Shown in pieces: positions 2,610-56,069 of a stretch of 64,000 nucleotides of DNA. The stretch spans positions 4,044-68,043 of the forward strand of contig CAJMGO010000004.1 of NCBI GenBank assembly GCA_905212975.1. The letters are read 5' to 3'. The translations under genes were made by a program, and so were the position numbers. Each line of letters starts with the position of its first letter. Positions within the stretch are counted from its first letter, which is position 1. Source of the DNA: an uncultured Bacillota bacterium. Its GTDB lineage: Bacteria > Bacillota_I > Bacilli_A > RF39 > UBA660. The notes beneath the pieces were generated by a model, which saw nothing but the letters and a program-made list of their open reading frames with translations, was not told where the DNA came from and searched no databases.

Positions 2610-3155
2610 TATATTATTATTATTATTTTTAAGATTATTTATATATTTTGTTAATATATTTATTAATGAATCAATACCTTTTTCTTTTGAACCTACTATA
2701 TTATATTCATTTATTTCTGATCCAGGAATAAATTGAATTAATTCAATATTTTCATGTTCTTCACTTAATAATTCCTCTGTCATTTGTAAATTAATAATAC
2801 CATCTTCAGCATAGTATATTCTATTTATATTTGGATTATTTTCTACATAATTACAAATTTGTTCCCATTTGCACAAATATGGATTATTGTATAGAGTATT
2901 ATTCTTATATATTTGATTATAACAATAGTTTGTATCTAATATAATATTTGTATCTTTTATATATTCTTGAATTTCATCTATGTACCTTTTTACAAATAAA
3001 TAATTATCTCCTGATATAAAATTAAAATATAGTATTTGATTATCACTTAGTTCTATTAGTTTATCTACTAATATTTTTATTTTTTCTTTTCTTAGGTTAA
3101 TATTTTCTTCATAACCATTAAATGTTCCTACAATATCACAAAAAAATACATTCAT
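2595..3155 (-). CDS. Hypothetical protein, possibly a HAD-like hydrolase fold with a degenerate motif I
   Basis: N-terminal FFCDIVGTF resembles HAD motif I (DxDGT) but lacks the second Asp. ISGDNY is GDxxND-like. Sits in an operon downstream of a TetR gene. Confidence 0.3.
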   Translation of the reverse strand: MNVFFCDIVGTFNGYEENINLRKEKIKILVDKLIELSDNQILYFNFISGDNYLFVKRYIDEIQEYIKDTNIILDTNYCYNQIYKNNTLYNNPYLCKWEQICNYVENNPNINRIYYAEDGIINLQMTEELLSEEHENIELIQFIPGSEINEYNIVGSKEKGIDSLINILTKYINNLKNNNNNIQKKL

Positions 3156-3170
3156 AATTTTTCTTCCTTT

Positions 3171-3731
3171 CTATAGATTATCTGGTATTAATTTATCTAA
3201 ATAATTTACTAAATCTTCTTTACTATATTTATTTTCATTTTTTAGCCATTCTATACCAACATTAAATACTGCACCTAAATAAAACTTTGAAATAATTTCA
3301 ACAGGTATAGTTTTATTTTTAAATTCTATATCATTTAATCTTTTTGTTACCTCATGATTCAATACATCATATATGATATCCATAGTAATACTATTTCTGT
3401 TATTTATCATAGCAGATATATATATATTCCTTTTTTCATCAATATGATTAAAGAAAAGTTTTATTAATTCAATATAATATTGTTTAGTATTATTTATATT
3501 TTTATTTTTCGATAATTCTTCAATAAGTGAATCCTTTAAAGTATTAATATATTCTTCTAATAATTCATATTTATCATTATAATGAGAATAAAATGTTGAT
3601 CTATTTATTAGAGCATGAGAACAAATATCTGATACTTTTATTTCTTCAAATTGTTTTTCTTTCATTAATTCAAGTAAAGTTGAATATAATATATTTTTAG
3701 TTTTAATAACACGTAAATCATTCTTTTCCAT
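3171..3731 (-). CDS. TetR/AcrR family transcriptional regulator
   Basis: N-terminal HTH LRVIKTKNILYSTLLELMKEKQFEEIKVSDICSHALINRSTFYSHY is the TetR_N signature. Divergent from the MMPL transporter gene. Confidence 0.8.
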   Translation of the reverse strand: MEKNDLRVIKTKNILYSTLLELMKEKQFEEIKVSDICSHALINRSTFYSHYNDKYELLEEYINTLKDSLIEELSKNKNINNTKQYYIELIKLFFNHIDEKRNIYISAMINNRNSITMDIIYDVLNHEVTKRLNDIEFKNKTIPVEIISKFYLGAVFNVGIEWLKNENKYSKEDLVNYLDKLIPDNL

Positions 3732-3789
3732 ATAACCACCACATTAATTATAAAATAGAAAATATGATTTGTAAAGATAATAAACACTA

Positions 3790-3850
3790 TGTAGCTTATT
3801 TATACATACGTTTTTAACAAAGTGTTGTTTATTTATACGTATTTTTTATT
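3790..3850. promoter_or_regulatory. Divergent promoter/operator region with two TTTATAC(A)TACGT half-sites, a candidate TetR operator
   Basis: Repeated TTTATACATACGT and TTTATACGTAT (palindromic core ATACGTAT) between the divergent TetR and MMPL genes. Confidence 0.3.
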
Positions 3851-21507: not shown

Positions 21508-21542
21508 TTGTAAATTTTATTTTATATTGCTATAATTAAATT

Positions 21543-21710
21543 ACTAGAGGAAGTTATAAAAGAAAAACCTACAAGTAAACGATTCGGGAACTTAATGAAT
21601 AGGTTGTGTTGAATGCTTAAATTTATTTAAGAATCCTAATATTTATTCTGTAGTGCCCACCTGGTAGAACAGGTTTTATCGTTTAGACTTCTTCTAGTTT
21701 TTTTTTTGTA
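21543..21710 (+). ncRNA. Candidate structured RNA or complex terminator between the pilin gene and ftsK
   Basis: ACTAGAGGAAGT (21543-21554) pairs with ACTTCTTCTAGT (21688-21699) with one G-U, enclosing ~135 nt with internal complementary stretches (AAACGAT/ATCGTTT, AAAACC/GGTTTT). It is followed by T10. Confidence 0.25.
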
Positions 21711-48053: not shown

Positions 48054-50699
48054 ATGGAAAATATAGTAAGAAAAATAGAAAAAATTAATTCAATTAATAA
48101 AAAAAGAATGTATTTATCAAAAAAAATACAACTATTAAATTATAATGATAAAATAAAACTTTTAAATGCCCTAATAGATAGTGCAACTACAAAGTATGAA
48201 AAACTAAGTAATTTGAAAAAACAATATGAAAAGTATTTAAAAACAAATAGAGTATTTAAATCTATTAGTGAAATAGAAAAATTTAAAGAAAACATAGATT
48301 TATATAAAGAAATTAAAGACTATATTGAGGTAGAACATAGTATTAAAATAAAAAATAAAAATTTATTATTTAAAATTAACGATACAGAAATTAAAAATAT
48401 TGATGTTATTCTTAATAGAAATACTTATGTTCTATTTGATAAGTTAAATTATGAATTTGATACAGATAAAAGGATTTTAATATTAATTCAATTAAAACAA
48501 ATATATTCAAAAGCAAATATCAAAATAAAAAAAGAAAATTTTGGATCTGAATATAAGACTTTTGAACGAATATATAGATATATAAATAATTTGATAAAAA
48601 TAGAGTATGAAATAAAGGATAAAATTAAAGCAAGTAAAAAAGAAATAATTGTTAAAAAGAAATATTATTATCCTGTATTGAAACTAAATGAAAAGCAAAT
48701 ATTAACCATTGATTTGAAAATTAATACGAATATATTAGAAACATTAAAAAAACTAGAAAATGAAACAGATATAAATAAAAGAATAAAACTATTAAATTTA
48801 TTGAAAAGTAAATGTATAGATATTTATTCCACACTAGAAAAGAATACTTCAAAAGAAATTTATAAATATGTAAAAGAAATTGAGGAATATTCTAATGAAG
48901 CTATAAAAATAGAACATAAAAAGAGAAAAAATATTTCAAAAAAGAATAGCAATGAAATAAATAATAATTCAAAATTGTCGAAAAAAGAGCTAGAAGTAGT
49001 TGATAAAATTAAAAATAATGATTGTTTAGACAGATATACTTTATTAGAAATTTTAACAGCATATAAGTATTTAGTTATGAATTATGTTAAAGACTATTCA
49101 ATAAGTATTCTTAATGTATCAAAGTATATATCTAACAAAATAATTGATGAAGAAATTAAAGATGATAAAGATATTGTTATGATAAATTCAATAAAAGATA
49201 CAATTAGATATAGATTACTTTCGTTAAATAAAAATGATGATAATGAATTGGAACGTTCTATATTAAAGGAATTGAGAATTGTATTTGATTTTATTTGTAA
49301 AAATTATAAAGAAGATACAAAAAGTACAGAACATGATTATAGATGTGATGTCATAAAATACTATTTAAAAGATGAAAATGGATATCCATATGTAAAAAAA
49401 ATAATTAATTATATGCCAGAAATAGTAAATGTTAGAGTAAAAGAACATAGTAATGAACATATAATTATAAATATATTAAAGGAATATATCTATAATTATA
49501 AAGAAATGTTAAAAGATAAAAATGGTTGTTTTATAAATCCAGATTATTTAAAACAAGTATATTTATTATTCATGAACAATAGTAATTTGAAGTTGAATTT
49601 TGAAGATAAAGTAACAATTGACTATATATTAGATGATTTTATACTTTATCTAGATAAAGAAATATATAAAGAAGATAGAAAAACCTTAGCAAAAAAAGAA
49701 GTAAGAAAATTAAAAAGTCAATATTTATATTATGAAAAGAAATTAAAATTTAGAAAAGTTGATGAAAGACAATTAAGATGGCAAACTGAGTTATTATCAA
49801 ATAATAGAACACATTGTTTGAAAAAAGACAATAGAGTAAATGTATTAGATGACTGTATCACATTAAATGGAATTAATGCTTATTCATTATCTCAAGATGG
49901 TGATAAGAGAAAACTTAAAATACATGTAATAGATACAAGTAAAATTGTCGCACCATATACATCAGTGGATAGTAAAATTTATAACTGCATGATTGAACAT
50001 GAAAAAATTAGTGAAAATATAAAAAGAAAATTAGCATTAAAATATAATGAAGAAAATCCTACAATTACATATGAATTTAATATTGAAAAAGGTAATTGTA
50101 TTACAGATTTTAAGATTTATAAAAGTAAAATCTTCATAGATGAGGAAAATAATACTTTATTGAAAAACTTAAGTCAATTATCCAAAAAAATTCTAGCTTC
50201 TAAGAATATTAAAGATTTCGAAAGCTATACAATTGATGAATCTATTGAAATATTACTTAATGAAGAATTTATAAATTATATTGATGAAAATAAACTACCA
50301 TTTATTTATTGTGGAAAAGAATATATAAATGATTATATAAATCATATGAATAATTTAAGTAATATATTTAATAGGTTGAATGTAATTGATTTTAAGAAGT
50401 TATACACTATTATTAGTAATAATGTAGGTGAATATAATTATTCTACAAAAGCATTCGAAGTTGATGGAACATATAATTTAAATTTAATAAATGACATTAA
50501 TTATTTATTTATTTTTAATCAACGATTAATTACAGATATTATTTTTAATAACCAAAAGCTTAAAGATAAATCAAAATATTTAAAAGAATGTGAAAAATTA
50601 GAGCATGAGTTAAATCTAAGTATTAATCATATTAAGCCAGAAGATATAGTATTTAAAAATAATGCTAAAAGGAATAAATTAAAACAATTTAATTTGTGA
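48054..50699 (+). CDS. Large (881 aa) Lys/Asn/Ile-rich hypothetical protein co-transcribed with dnaB-dnaI
   Basis: Begins 12 nt after the dnaI stop. No recognisable catalytic motifs. A short stretch (NVLDDCITLNG...KLKIHVIDTSKIV) loosely recalls the RNB-fold motif I, but catalytic Asp residues are absent. Confidence 0.5.
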   Translation: MENIVRKIEKINSINKKRMYLSKKIQLLNYNDKIKLLNALIDSATTKYEKLSNLKKQYEKYLKTNRVFKSISEIEKFKENIDLYKEIKDYIEVEHSIKIKNKNLLFKINDTEIKNIDVILNRNTYVLFDKLNYEFDTDKRILILIQLKQIYSKANIKIKKENFGSEYKTFERIYRYINNLIKIEYEIKDKIKASKKEIIVKKKYYYPVLKLNEKQILTIDLKINTNILETLKKLENETDINKRIKLLNLLKSKCIDIYSTLEKNTSKEIYKYVKEIEEYSNEAIKIEHKKRKNISKKNSNEINNNSKLSKKELEVVDKIKNNDCLDRYTLLEILTAYKYLVMNYVKDYSISILNVSKYISNKIIDEEIKDDKDIVMINSIKDTIRYRLLSLNKNDDNELERSILKELRIVFDFICKNYKEDTKSTEHDYRCDVIKYYLKDENGYPYVKKIINYMPEIVNVRVKEHSNEHIIINILKEYIYNYKEMLKDKNGCFINPDYLKQVYLLFMNNSNLKLNFEDKVTIDYILDDFILYLDKEIYKEDRKTLAKKEVRKLKSQYLYYEKKLKFRKVDERQLRWQTELLSNNRTHCLKKDNRVNVLDDCITLNGINAYSLSQDGDKRKLKIHVIDTSKIVAPYTSVDSKIYNCMIEHEKISENIKRKLALKYNEENPTITYEFNIEKGNCITDFKIYKSKIFIDEENNTLLKNLSQLSKKILASKNIKDFESYTIDESIEILLNEEFINYIDENKLPFIYCGKEYINDYINHMNNLSNIFNRLNVIDFKKLYTIISNNVGEYNYSTKAFEVDGTYNLNLINDINYLFIFNQRLITDIIFNNQKLKDKSKYLKECEKLEHELNLSINHIKPEDIVFKNNAKRNKLKQFNL

Positions 50700-50930
50700 T
50701 TGACAAATTAAAAATTAGTGGTAAAATTTAAGTAATAGTTTTGATTTGGACATGATTATTGAATAAAACTAATTTTAGCGATTTAGGAATGGTGAAAGCC
50801 TAAAAGTAAAATTTAATAATTACTACCAATGAACTGAACTCAAAAGAGTTTCCGGGTTATTCCGTTAAAAATATAAAAGTAAAAAAAAGGATGGTACCGT
50901 GCTTTCTGCACTCCTTAGTACTATTCTTTT
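50700..50930 (+). promoter_or_regulatory. T-box riboswitch leader (Thr specifier ACC) controlling the downstream small-ORF/thrS operon
   Basis: Conserved T-box sequence AGGATGGTACCGTG (50888-50901). Candidate specifier ACCA at 50824-50827. Terminator hairpin and T-run end at about 50925, just before RBS GGAGGAG. Confidence 0.6.
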
Positions 50931-50951
50931 TTGCGTTTTGGAGGAGTATGT

Positions 50952-51398
50952 ATGAACGTAAGTAGAAAAAACATTTTGGAAATAAGAGAGTTTATGTGGA
51001 ATTTTTTAAATCTTAAGTATGATGGAAAATTGAAGTTAACACATGAAGAGTTTTCAAATTATTTAATTATGAAAGGGAAAACACACTTAACACATGTTAA
51101 TTTTAAAAAAATAAAAAAAGAAGATATATTAAATGGTACATATATTTTAGTAAGAGATGATGTAGGCAAAATTATTCCGTATGAAAGGCCAATAAATCTT
51201 TCTATGTTATGCAATCAAATTAAACAAAATGAGGAAAAATTAAAGAGAGACTTAGTAAGAAAAAGATATCTGGAAGAACAAGGTTATAGAGAACTTCCAA
51301 ATGGGGAAGTATTATCGAATGATTTTTTCGAGGCAGAACCTTGTATTACACAAAAATTAAATAGAGTTAAGACTTTAATAAGAAGAGGAATAAGATAA
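50952..51398 (+). CDS. Hypothetical 148 aa protein between the T-box leader and thrS
   Basis: RBS GGAGGAG. No known motif. 17 nt upstream of thrS. Confidence 0.45.
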   Translation: MNVSRKNILEIREFMWNFLNLKYDGKLKLTHEEFSNYLIMKGKTHLTHVNFKKIKKEDILNGTYILVRDDVGKIIPYERPINLSMLCNQIKQNEEKLKRDLVRKRYLEEQGYRELPNGEVLSNDFFEAEPCITQKLNRVKTLIRRGIR

Positions 51399-51415
51399 GT
51401 AAAGAGGAGAATAAT

Positions 51416-53173
51416 ATGATTAATTTTAAAGAAAATGAAGATTTAAATAAATTAAATCATAGTTGTGCGCATTTACTTGCACATGCTATAAAACATTTAT
51501 ATCCAAATGCAAAGTTTTGGGTAGGCCCTGTTGTGGAAGAAGGATTTTATTATGATATTGATTTAGGTGATGATGTAATAAAAGAAGATGATTTACCTAA
51601 AATAGAGAAAGAAATGAAAAAAATCAGTAAGGACAATAAGTTAATTAAAAGAATAGAGCTTACTAAACAAAATGCATTAGAAATGTTTAAAGATGATCCA
51701 TATAAAATAGATTTAATTAGAAGAATGAATGAAAACGATACAGTAATTTCTGCATACCAACAAGGTGATTTTATTGATTTATGCAGAGGACCGCATATGA
51801 ATTCTACGAAAGATATGAAGTATTTTAAACTTGTAAAAGTAAGTGGAGCATATTGGAAAGGTGATTCAAAAAACAAAATGCTTCAAAGAATTTATGGCGT
51901 TTGTTTTGAAAAAGAAGAAGATTTGATGAACTATTTATCTTATCTTGAAGAAGCAAAGCTACGTGATCATAGAAAAATAGGTAAAGATCTAGATTTATTT
52001 ATGACTGATGATTTAGTTGGTAGGGGATTACCTATGTTTTTACCAAATGGATATATAATATGGCAAGAATTAGAAAATTATATAAAAAACAAAGAAAAAA
52101 GGCTTGGATATCAACATGTTATGACACCATGTGTTGGAAATGTAGAATTATATAAAACAAGTGGACATTGGGAACATTATAAAGAAAACATGTTTCCTGC
52201 AATGGAGGTCGATGGAGAAAGTTTTGTGTTAAGACCAATGAATTGTCCTCATCACATGATGATATATGCTAATAAATTACATTCATATAGGGATTTACCT
52301 ATAAGAATTGGTGAAATTGCTCATGATTTTAGATATGAATCAAGTGGTTCATTAAAAGGAATAGAAAGAGGAAGACATTTTTGCCAAAATGATGCACATT
52401 TATTTGTAACACCTGAACAAATAAAGGATGAATTTAAAAAAGTTGTTGATTTAATACTAGATACATATAAAGACTTTGGAATTAAAGACTATAGATTTGT
52501 TTTATCTCTTCGTGATTCAGAGGATAAAGAAAAGTATCATCAAGATGATGAAATGTGGGAAAAAGCAGAAAATGGACTTAGAGAGGTTCTAAATGAACTT
52601 GGTATTAATTATACTGAAGAAATAGGAGAGGCAGCTTTTTATGGCCCAAAGTTAGATGTTAATGTTAGACCTGCTGTTGGTAATGAATATACATTATCTA
52701 CTTGTCAATTAGATTTTTGTTTACCTGCTAAATTCGATTTAAAATATGTTGATAAGGATGGGTCAAAGAAAACACCTGTTGTATTACATAGAGCAATATT
52801 AGGTTCAATTGATAGGTTTATGGCTTATATTTTAGAGGAAACAAAAGGGAATCTTCCACTTTGGTTATCACCAGTACAAGTTAATATAATTCCTGTTAAT
52901 AATGAATATCATCTAGAATATTGTAACAAGTTACATGAAAAATTATTGGATGAAAATATAAGGGTTGAACTTGACAACAGAGATGAAAAATTATCATATA
53001 AAATACGTGAAAGTCAAACTCATAAAATTCCATTTACATTAATAATTGGCCAAAATGAAGTTGATAATAATTTAATAAGTTATAGAAAATTTGGTACCAC
53101 AGAAACAGTAACTATATCTATTGATGAACTTATAATATTACTAAAAAAAGCAATAAAAAATAAAGAATTATAA
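51416..53173 (+). CDS. thrS: Threonyl-tRNA synthetase lacking the N-terminal TGS (N1) domain
   Basis: Begins directly with the N2/editing-domain motif HSCAHLLAHAIKHLYPNAKFWVGPVVEEGFYYDID. Class II catalytic core (RGPH, FRYESSG, HRAILGSIDRF) and anticodon-binding domain. 585 aa versus ~640 for canonical ThrRS. Confidence 0.9.
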   Translation: MINFKENEDLNKLNHSCAHLLAHAIKHLYPNAKFWVGPVVEEGFYYDIDLGDDVIKEDDLPKIEKEMKKISKDNKLIKRIELTKQNALEMFKDDPYKIDLIRRMNENDTVISAYQQGDFIDLCRGPHMNSTKDMKYFKLVKVSGAYWKGDSKNKMLQRIYGVCFEKEEDLMNYLSYLEEAKLRDHRKIGKDLDLFMTDDLVGRGLPMFLPNGYIIWQELENYIKNKEKRLGYQHVMTPCVGNVELYKTSGHWEHYKENMFPAMEVDGESFVLRPMNCPHHMMIYANKLHSYRDLPIRIGEIAHDFRYESSGSLKGIERGRHFCQNDAHLFVTPEQIKDEFKKVVDLILDTYKDFGIKDYRFVLSLRDSEDKEKYHQDDEMWEKAENGLREVLNELGINYTEEIGEAAFYGPKLDVNVRPAVGNEYTLSTCQLDFCLPAKFDLKYVDKDGSKKTPVVLHRAILGSIDRFMAYILEETKGNLPLWLSPVQVNIIPVNNEYHLEYCNKLHEKLLDENIRVELDNRDEKLSYKIRESQTHKIPFTLIIGQNEVDNNLISYRKFGTTETVTISIDELIILLKKAIKNKEL

Positions 53174-53199
53174 AAAAAGGAGAAAAATCCTTTTTTTTG
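53174..53199 (+). terminator. Terminator after thrS
   Basis: AAAAAGGA-gaaaaa-TCCTTTTT followed by T-run. Confidence 0.5.
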
Positions 53200-55261: not shown

Positions 55262-55318
55262 TTGATTAGGATTCGAACAACACGACCATAAAGAAGTGCA
55301 ATTTCTATCCAGCTTCTA
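55262..55318 (-). other. Inverted partial copy (D-loop to T-arm) of tRNA-Arg(TCT): a pseudo-tRNA remnant
   Basis: The minus-strand read GCTGGATAGA..ACTTCTTT..GGTCG..GTTCGAATCC shares D-loop, anticodon-loop (TCT) and T-loop blocks with the tRNA-Arg 50 bp upstream. It lacks the acceptor stem and CCA. It overlaps the stop of the REase-like gene. Confidence 0.4.
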
Positions 55319-56069
55319 AATAGTGAATTTTATCAAATAATAGGGAAATGAAATTTTTTTTAATAGTAAATTCTAAACTTTTGTTACTATATGTTCCAAT
55401 CTTATCACCACTTTTAATAAGTCTAGCAACAATACTTATTTCTATAATTCCTCTTTCTAATAAATTTAAAAAAGTTTCAAATGATTTTAGTTTATATAAT
55501 TCTAGTGAATAATACCTATAATAAATAACATCATCAATAATTTTTTTACTAGCCCTTATTAAAGCTAGTTTATTTAATTTTAGGCATAAATGATCTTTTA
55601 ATTTGTCTAAGTAAACAAAGGATTCTCTTTCAATTAGTTCATTATTTTTATTGTAAACACATAATATTAATATTTCACTTTTTTTATCAATTTCAAATTT
55701 AAATTTAAAATTATTATTTACGCAACATGGATTCTTACAATTAAGTGTTGCAATAAAAATATTTTTATCACTTATATCTTTATCTGGATATCCATATTTT
55801 TCAATTATTCTATTAATTTCAGGAAATGTCGGGCCATCAAAAGCAGTATTAAATAAATGTAAAGGATATCGGCTAAATCGTGTCGAACATTTTATTTCTA
55901 TATCTTTGTAATCAGGAAAAAACATTGAATCAATTTTTTTATTAATTTCATTTTCAAATGTTAATCCAACATTACCATAACTTTTATATTTACTTTTTAT
56001 CCAACCTTTATTATTTATTTTACAAAATTCATTTATTAAACTTTTCATATTTTCATCCATAATAATCAC
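55305..56069 (-). CDS. Orphan PD-(D/E)xK nuclease, type II restriction-endonuclease-like (MvaI/BcnI-like?)
   Basis: 254 aa, no TM. Candidate active site FPDYKDIEIKCS (PD...D/E-x-K). No methyltransferase gene adjacent. Followed by a 370-bp ORF-less AT-rich tract. Confidence 0.35.
   Translation of the reverse strand: MIIMDENMKSLINEFCKINNKGWIKSKYKSYGNVGLTFENEINKKIDSMFFPDYKDIEIKCSTRFSRYPLHLFNTAFDGPTFPEINRIIEKYGYPDKDISDKNIFIATLNCKNPCCVNNNFKFKFEIDKKSEILILCVYNKNNELIERESFVYLDKLKDHLCLKLNKLALIRASKKIIDDVIYYRYYSLELYKLKSFETFLNLLERGIIEISIVARLIKSGDKIGTYSNKSLEFTIKKNFISLLFDKIHYLEAG

Follow-up and report, generated by a model that had tools for sequence, protein, structure and literature searches.

A threonine T-box operon of uncultured gut Bacilli with a variable first cistron ahead of a threonyl-tRNA synthetase gene lacking N1/TGS

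T-box control of thrS, the gene for threonyl-tRNA synthetase (ThrRS), is classical, and both this control and the enzyme itself are textbook matter. Here we describe a thrS operon that carries an additional gene, located in a stretch of 64,000 nucleotides from an uncultured Bacillota bacterium (Bacilli_A; RF39; UBA660; assembly GCA_905212975.1, contig CAJMGO010000004.1, positions 4,044-68,043, forward strand). This whole stretch, with a G+C content of 23.9%, is called the window below, and coordinates refer to it. Sequence analysis identifies the locus as a bicistronic operon, with a predicted promoter, a Thr-specific T-box leader (specifier ACU), a gene for a protein of 148 residues (ORF148) and a thrS whose product has no N-terminal N1/TGS domain. 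Across related genomes the gap between T-box and thrS is a variable slot, and the operon's first cistron is variable cargo. In our judgment the chances are about even that ORF148 is a non-essential, probably nucleic-acid-binding factor co-expressed with ThrRS, a reading that includes regulator-like variants.

Comparison with relatives identifies ORF148 as a real protein-coding gene, evidently under purifying selection and belonging to an unannotated, clade-restricted and fast-evolving family. A preliminary description of the locus, made from the letters of the window, had seen no recognizable domain in the 148-residue product, and indeed neither ORF148 nor the family members scanned matched a family in Pfam, NCBIfam, PHROG or PADLOC. 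The PADLOC scan of ORF148 returned only Cas11b (E = 0.008, 14 bits), and the best PHROG match had E = 0.014. Relatives were not found in IMG/VR, a BFVD search gave nothing significant, and public sources give the proteins of this family no name. A word-indexed homolog search yielded only six close clusters, each lying behind the same conserved leader and before the same short thrS. It understated the family, since a survey of thrS loci combined with iterative hidden Markov models (HMMs) recovered many more members: in most of the 80 loci surveyed the T-box core and thrS are separated by an ORF, and 32 of these ORFs were joined to ORF148 (E = 1e-26 to 1e-60). A profile search of 1.84 billion representatives gave 386 sequences at E ≤ 1e-3, clustered at 50% identity, and 135 at E ≤ 1e-10, mostly of 145-200 aa. 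Conservation of the ORF in relatives, on which the preliminary description had made the link to thrS depend, is therefore far wider than the word-indexed search implies.

Compared with its counterpart in locus L003, ORF148 shows a nonsynonymous divergence (dN) of 0.27 with saturated synonymous divergence (dS) and a dN/dS of about 0.12; against L001 the ratio is 0.15. Family members share an N-terminal block (ISL.KFL.RY...LTH.D..LFP.LKR.SF...G.I.LV.D..G..IPY..P) and, in most cases, a C-terminal block (YDY..MSIYEL..LL...ARREL.KRG..KKYKR). Among 18 diverse members H31, G62, V67, D69 and Y77 are invariant and P80 nearly so; among 100 members D69 is still invariant, and F14, H31, G62, V67, Y77 and L120 are nearly so. 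The proteins are basic, with a median pI of 9.0 for the family and 9.6 for ORF148. Architectural variants also occur: P0207 has two tandem N-terminal modules, and two proteins of about 320 aa (L038, 3027-3998; L039, 3034-3999) have some 150 residues inserted between the N-terminal and the C-terminal block. A role as a threonine-rich leader peptide was ruled out for ORF148, in which threonine accounts for 6 of the 148 residues.

Family members of readable context occupy a single kind of position. All 40 family HMM matches, from 93 loci and the window, are on the same strand as thrS and directly 5' of it, most of the loci having been fetched through thrS, so that family copies elsewhere in the genomes would be missed. 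Members looked up through the ORF itself escape this bias: each of the six with informative context precedes a TGS-less thrS, the upstream genes being either dnaB-dnaI or rpsB-tsf. The distance from the family stop codon to the thrS start is mostly -47 to +18 nt, abutting or overlapping arrangements being common; in the window it is 17 nt, exactly as first described. The related genome records are labeled as uncultured gut Bacilli, as Erysipelotrichaceae or Tenericutes metagenome-assembled genomes, or as 'Clostridium sp. CAG:524/1193/302'. One locus, L033, has a weak family-like ORF (3114-3596, E = 1e-6) upstream of the T-box and a 65-aa ORF (3615-3799) in the slot; L027, L064 and L086 resemble it, and this arrangement may be a rearranged or decaying version.

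What occupies the slot differs from relative to relative. In the 88 loci that were placed on a ThrRS tree, it holds a member of the ORF148 family in 32 cases, a hydrolase of metallo-beta-lactamase (MBL) fold in eight (L036, L037, L060, L072, L073, L076, L078, L085), other ORFs in 29 and nothing in 19; in about 14 of these 19, which are of Bacilli type, 55-80 nt separate the T-box from thrS. The other ORFs include a NUDIX gene accompanied by an uncharacterized protein of 260 aa (L052, L056) and uncharacterized proteins of 82-95 aa (L023, L074, L083, L089), 140 aa (L062, L088) and 155 aa; several of the uncharacterized slot ORFs also have basic tail ends. Profile-profile comparison revealed no relationship between the non-family slot ORFs and the ORF148 family, and the states of the slot are interleaved on the ThrRS tree. 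Rfam confirmed a T-box in one locus per slot category tested, except for the NUDIX/260-aa category, where L055 gave no match.

Structure prediction suggests for ORF148 an N-domain resembling a winged helix, followed by a long helix and a basic C-terminus. An AlphaFold2 (AF2) model built on seven near-identical sequences was poor, with a predicted local distance difference test score (pLDDT) of 60; an alignment of 23 sequences gave a model with pLDDT 79 and a predicted template modeling score (pTM) of 0.51. Its elements are helices at residues 11-19, 31-40 and 56-60, a hairpin at 64-78, a long helix at 83-109, a second hairpin at 112-122 and a final helix at 132-144. The predicted order of three helices followed by a beta-hairpin wing fits winged-helix domains such as those of MarR/PadR or the PCI-like domain of DDRGK1. 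The fold assignment is built on non-significant matches: Foldseek returned a weak list, mostly of MarR, PadR, ORC and TFIIE winged helices (best E = 0.6), and a profile search of PDB sequences placed the DDRGK1 winged helix at E = 0.36, the family motif 'G.I.LV.D..G..IPY..P' aligning with 'EGTITGVIDDRGKFIYITP' of DDRGK1. There are further weak profile matches between the C-terminal block and the ancillary helix and basic region of Skn-1/Maf. Given these fold hints, the weak profile matches and the basic pI, nucleic-acid binding is a reasonable inference for ORF148.

The second cistron encodes what looks like a normal, editing-competent enzyme. ThrRS of the window scores 701 bits on TIGR00418 (equivalog cut-off 384) and matches Pfam PF00587, PF03129 and PF07973 (tRNA_SAD), with both editing motifs, HSCAH and DLCRGPH, intact; in the Pfam scan no match to TGS (PF02824) was found. 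Its residue 7 aligns with residue 67 of the Staphylococcus aureus enzyme (645 aa) and its residue 2 with residue 60 of the Escherichia coli enzyme (642 aa), so that about 60 N-terminal residues, corresponding to N1, are missing. The preliminary description had put the shortening at about 55-60 aa and had noticed the N2 motif HSCAHLL close to the N-terminus, where it begins at residue 15; both observations hold. The 120 closest ThrRS homologs, down to 80% identity, are all of 583-588 aa and without TGS. At all of the 80 related genome loci thrS starts at the same residue, giving N-termini of the form MINIKE(D/N)E.L..LNHSCAHL, and this N-terminus is the same with or without ORF148. Sequence comparison thus shows an enzyme of a gut Bacilli clade that lost N1/TGS long ago. 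The N1 domain has been described as a regulator of ThrRS editing (PMC5909460). A TGS-less ThrRS, 72-73% identical to that of the window, also occurs in records labeled Lachnospiraceae (L061, L065, L067-L070, L077, L079-L081, L087), including the cultured Coprococcus hominis; thrS sits there behind a different T-box core, AGGTGGAACCGTG, and may be a second, horizontally acquired copy.

The preliminary description had placed a threonine T-box upstream of the ORF, and the leader, when searched alone, indeed aligns with the full RF00230 model (1-219) at 50732-50918 (+), with 69.6 bits and E = 7e-15. The core GGATGGTACCGTG (50889-50901) occurs once in the 64 kb, against 0.04 occurrences expected. 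The score falls short of the Rfam gathering score of 93, so the curated threshold is not reached, and whole-window Rfam scans, in gathering as well as E-value mode, missed the T-box, which was lost to the Infernal filters. The thrS T-boxes of relatives (L010, L019, L033, L037, L062, L089) were confirmed by Rfam at 43-89 bits, all of them below the gathering score. A sub-threshold score is a trait of this AT-rich clade, and with the additional loss to filters in a 64-kb search, routine annotation will miss its riboswitches. The leader is nonetheless well conserved, with a mean column identity of 87% across relatives, and the promoter site is kept as well, its -35 hexamer being identical in all six aligned leaders.

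The specifier was first read as ACC(A). Its specificity for threonine stands, as ACU and ACC are both Thr codons, but the codon itself has to be corrected: in the Rfam structural alignment a UUGG/CCAA helix forms the base of the specifier loop and takes up C50826 and C50827, which leaves ACU followed by A at 50822-50825. UUACUACC is almost invariant in about 35 relatives; L025 reads ACUCCC and thus retains ACU only, the following base being variable. Stem I carries the motifs AGCGA and GGUGAAA, which correspond to AGAGA and GGUGNRA of the consensus in the cmscan alignment and are kept across the clade. Neither the window nor the 14 loci scanned yielded a tRNA-Thr gene with which to match specifier and discriminator.

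Downstream, two competing structures can be drawn. The antiterminator, AGGAUGGUACCGUGC...GCACUCCU at 50888-50915, belongs to the only such core in the window and contains a 7-nt bulge, UGGUACC, whose UGGN is by homology the binding site of the tRNA acceptor end. Alone it folds at -8.2 kcal/mol; the terminator, with a 9-bp lower stem and a 4-bp upper stem followed by U6, folds at -16.1 kcal/mol and is present in the minimum free energy fold. The two are mutually exclusive, and the T-box core itself forms the 5' arm of the terminator. This terminator pairing is retained in at least 8 of 9 positions in 35 of the 81 loci, against 5 of 2000 shuffles, and shows compensatory changes (A-T in L010, C-G in L016). 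Two terminator designs coexist among the thrS T-boxes of the clade: the core-pairing one, in which GGAUGGNAC pairs with the strand before the U-run and encloses a small upper hairpin, in the 35 loci just mentioned (among them the window, L010, L013, L016, L025, L041, L073 and L075), and the canonical one, with pairing between the antiterminator's 3' half and a strand further downstream, in L011, L021 and L039. An alternative TTG start of ORF148, at 50931, falls within the terminator U-run. A helix between ACUCCUU and GGAGGAGU that would sequester the Shine-Dalgarno sequence and act as a translational platform was also considered and set aside, the terminator with its U-run being more stable and supported by covariation.

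From the T-box mechanism and the leader sequence, the default fold would be the intrinsic terminator, with the T-box core paired. Uncharged tRNA-Thr, by binding the specifier and the UGGU bulge, would stabilize the weaker antiterminator and allow read-through into ORF148 and thrS. ORF148 would in this way be co-induced with ThrRS when charging of tRNA-Thr drops, and probably be coupled to it in translation as well; such coupling is probable because of the 17-nt gap and the overlap seen in many relatives. The product of ORF148 would then have tRNA-Thr, the thrS transcript or ThrRS as its target, and would be no substitute for the lost N1.

How close the tie between ORF148 and ThrRS may be has to be judged from observations that point in opposite directions. 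A strictly conserved position and purifying selection speak for some connection of ORF148 with the expression or function of thrS, whereas its frequent loss, replacement and fast divergence argue that it would be dispensable, and speak against an obligatory partnership with ThrRS. Several results count against the reading of a co-expressed nucleic-acid-binding factor, as does the sampling through thrS mentioned above. ORF148 is absent from many close relatives that have the same ThrRS, their slot being empty or filled by unrelated genes, so that it looks dispensable. The rate at which its protein changes is about seven times that of ThrRS (for thrS, dN against L003 is 0.04). No ThrRS residue tracks the presence of the ORF, each of the top associations covering only about half of the loci that bear a family member. 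Nothing significant came out of profile searches of PDB sequences with 18 and with 100 family members (best E = 0.12), and by these searches and Foldseek ORF148 has no significant similarity to any protein of established function. The main rival explanation is that of a passenger gene: small, compact genomes would offer a permissive slot, in which ORF148 would be one of several unrelated co-transcribed lodgers and would have no role connected with threonine. We regard this as a serious possibility, nearly as likely as the favored one. It would account for the diversity of slot contents, for the lack of homology between slot ORF clusters in profile-profile comparison, for the interleaving of slot states on the ThrRS tree, for the fast evolution of ORF148 and for a ThrRS without co-adaptation to it. 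It fits less well with a family that holds its exact position across about 28% ThrRS divergence, even where its own members share less than 20% identity, and in differing upstream neighborhoods, that frequently overlaps the thrS start and that is under purifying selection; a passenger would also be expected to have copies at other loci, and none was seen in a sample biased towards thrS. At the opposite end, the family would be a dedicated partner of the N1-less ThrRS system, induced by threonine starvation and binding tRNA-Thr, the thrS transcript or ThrRS, which we think unlikely. Were this the case, ORF148 would adjust charging or editing, or would pass the T-box signal on to other genes, the role that anti-TRAP has for tryptophan, and a T-box-controlled thrS operon would for the first time have a protein cofactor or output of its own.

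The predicted winged-helix-like fold and the basic C-terminus would also suit a regulatory output of the T-box, that is, a protein induced by uncharged tRNA-Thr that regulates other genes in trans, for example those for threonine uptake or synthesis. A precedent is the anti-TRAP protein (rtpA) of Bacillus subtilis, outlined in PMC10327191 and PMC2494555 as a small regulatory protein induced via a Trp T-box. Yet ORF148 matches no regulator family significantly and has no known target sites, frequent losses among close relatives would be unusual for a dedicated regulator, and a regulator acting in trans needs no strict adjacency to thrS or overlap with it; we find this explanation rather improbable. 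Far more so is the idea, raised in the preliminary description, that ORF148 is a detached or replacement N1/TGS module supplied in trans. Its attraction is that ORF148 adjoins an N1-less ThrRS and is co-regulated with it, and that every family member seen accompanies a TGS-less ThrRS. However, PF02824 is matched neither by the window protein nor by 17 other members, and the AF2 model is helical with two hairpins and not a beta-grasp. The same short ThrRS N-terminus is present where the slot is empty (about 14 related genomes) and where it is filled by unrelated genes; relatives thus share it without any partner, the very finding that the preliminary description had named as making the link coincidental. 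Moreover, all 120 of the closest ThrRS homologs lack TGS, yet the word-indexed search gave a handful of ORF homologs. Models and comparisons together largely refute the split-ThrRS idea, which can be set aside. The least credible proposal is that the ORF is spurious, or a spacer that affects thrS expression only by being translated. AT-rich sequence, the lack of a known domain and very fast divergence could be cited in its favor; they have to be set against a dN/dS of 0.12-0.15, invariant residues across sequences of about 20% identity, a strong ribosome-binding site (RBS), 386 family representatives and a model that reaches pLDDT 79 from only 23 sequences. Of all these explanations, a non-essential, probably nucleic-acid-binding factor co-expressed with ThrRS is the one we favor.

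The features of the locus are collected in Table 1. The hairpin and U-run that follow thrS are the probable end of the operon; a consensus scan did not list this hairpin because it has too few G-C pairs.

Table 1. Features of the T-box-ORF148-thrS operon (window coordinates)
Feature	Position	Strand	Details
Promoter-like site, sigma-70-type	50700..50727	+	TTGACA-16-TG-TAAAAT; 11/12 consensus matches, TG extension present; putative activity
Thr T-box leader	50732..50932	+	Stem I, Stem II/IIA-B region, Stem III, antiterminator/terminator; RF00230 match 50732-50918
Specifier codon ACU (Thr)	50822..50824	+	Followed by purine A50825 and helix strand CCAA 50826-50829; Rfam structural alignment
T-box core and antiterminator	50888..50915	+	AGGA/UCCU helix, 7-nt bulge UGGUACC, GUGC/GCAC hairpin
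Intrinsic terminator	50889..50932	+	GGAUGGUAC (50889-50897) pairs with GUACUAUUC (50918-50926); U-run 50927-50932
RBS of ORF148	50940..50946	+	GGAGGAG, 5 nt ahead of ATG; read from sequence
ORF148	50952..51398	+	148 aa, ATG start; basic protein, pI 9.6; unannotated family
RBS of thrS	51402..51409	+	AAGAGGAG, 6 nt ahead of ATG at 51416; read from sequence
thrS	51416..53173	+	585 aa; N2 editing domain, class II core, anticodon-binding domain, without N1/TGS
Weak hairpin and U-run 3' of thrS	53172..53198	+	AAAAAAAGGAgaaaaaUCCUUUUUUUU; folds at -9.9 kcal/mol

The dnaB-dnaI ... thrS neighborhood is the same as in the B. subtilis genome. An ORF of 881 aa (48054-50699, +) lies between dnaI and the T-box promoter of the window and has no match in Pfam, NCBIfam, PHROGs or PADLOC; it has an 879-aa relative in L002, is called as two genes (371 and 507 aa) in the 99%-identical strains L008 and L009, and is absent from L001, where dnaI directly precedes the leader. 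Elsewhere in the window, a 6S RNA (RF00013) at 21538-21704 (+) scores 56.9 bits and exceeds its gathering threshold. A 254-aa ORF at 55305-56069 (-) has a counterpart in the near-identical L008 that is annotated with an MvaI/BcnI-type restriction endonuclease domain (PF15515).

What is new at this locus is an unnamed family with hundreds of representatives, known so far only from the gap that separates a Thr T-box from thrS in common uncultured gut Bacilli; the variability of that gap, which harbors differing genes in differing relatives; and the T-boxes of the clade, which escape standard Rfam annotation and in many cases have a terminator that pairs with the T-box core. Should ORF148 act on tRNA-Thr or ThrRS, a system regarded as controlled by RNA alone would gain a protein component. 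Should it be a passenger instead, the case would illustrate how operons of essential genes in reduced genomes gain and shed cargo.

Anti-TRAP and the streptococcal 'tRNA-ligase related hypotheticals' are examples of T-box-controlled proteins other than synthetases (PMC2494555; PMC10327191). The latter genes are tabulated downstream of T-boxes by Wels et al. 2008 (PMC2494555, Table 2), among them the Thr case spr1471; to judge by the descriptions in that table, they resemble ORF148 in being uncharacterized and in sharing T-box control with an aminoacyl-tRNA synthetase gene. Anti-TRAP (rtpA/yczA of B. subtilis), whose synthesis uncharged tRNA turns on by way of a T-box (PMC10327191), is like ORF148 a small protein that is neither a synthetase nor a biosynthetic enzyme, and the same kind of switching is proposed here for ORF148. 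Anti-TRAP differs in that it has 53 residues, binds zinc and TRAP, and is not adjacent to an aminoacyl-tRNA synthetase gene, and no relation in sequence or fold was found between the two. The synthetase itself shares with the E. coli (1QF6) and S. aureus (1NYQ/1NYR) enzymes the N2 motifs HxxxH and DxCRGPH, the class II core and the anticodon-binding domain; the S. aureus enzyme aligns with it at 732 bits over residues 67-639, whereas canonical residues 1-60 (N1/TGS) have no equivalent. With the T-boxes of thrS/thrZ in B. subtilis and other Firmicutes, the leader has in common a Thr specifier in the Stem I loop, the AG bulge and distal-loop motifs, the UGGN bulge, competition between antiterminator and terminator, the U-run and thrS as target. 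It differs from them in its ACU specifier, in an Rfam score below the gathering threshold, in a terminator whose 5' arm is the T-box core and not the 3' half of the antiterminator, and in the extra cistron between leader and thrS. We class the locus as a T-box thrS operon whose first cistron is an additional, family-specific gene.

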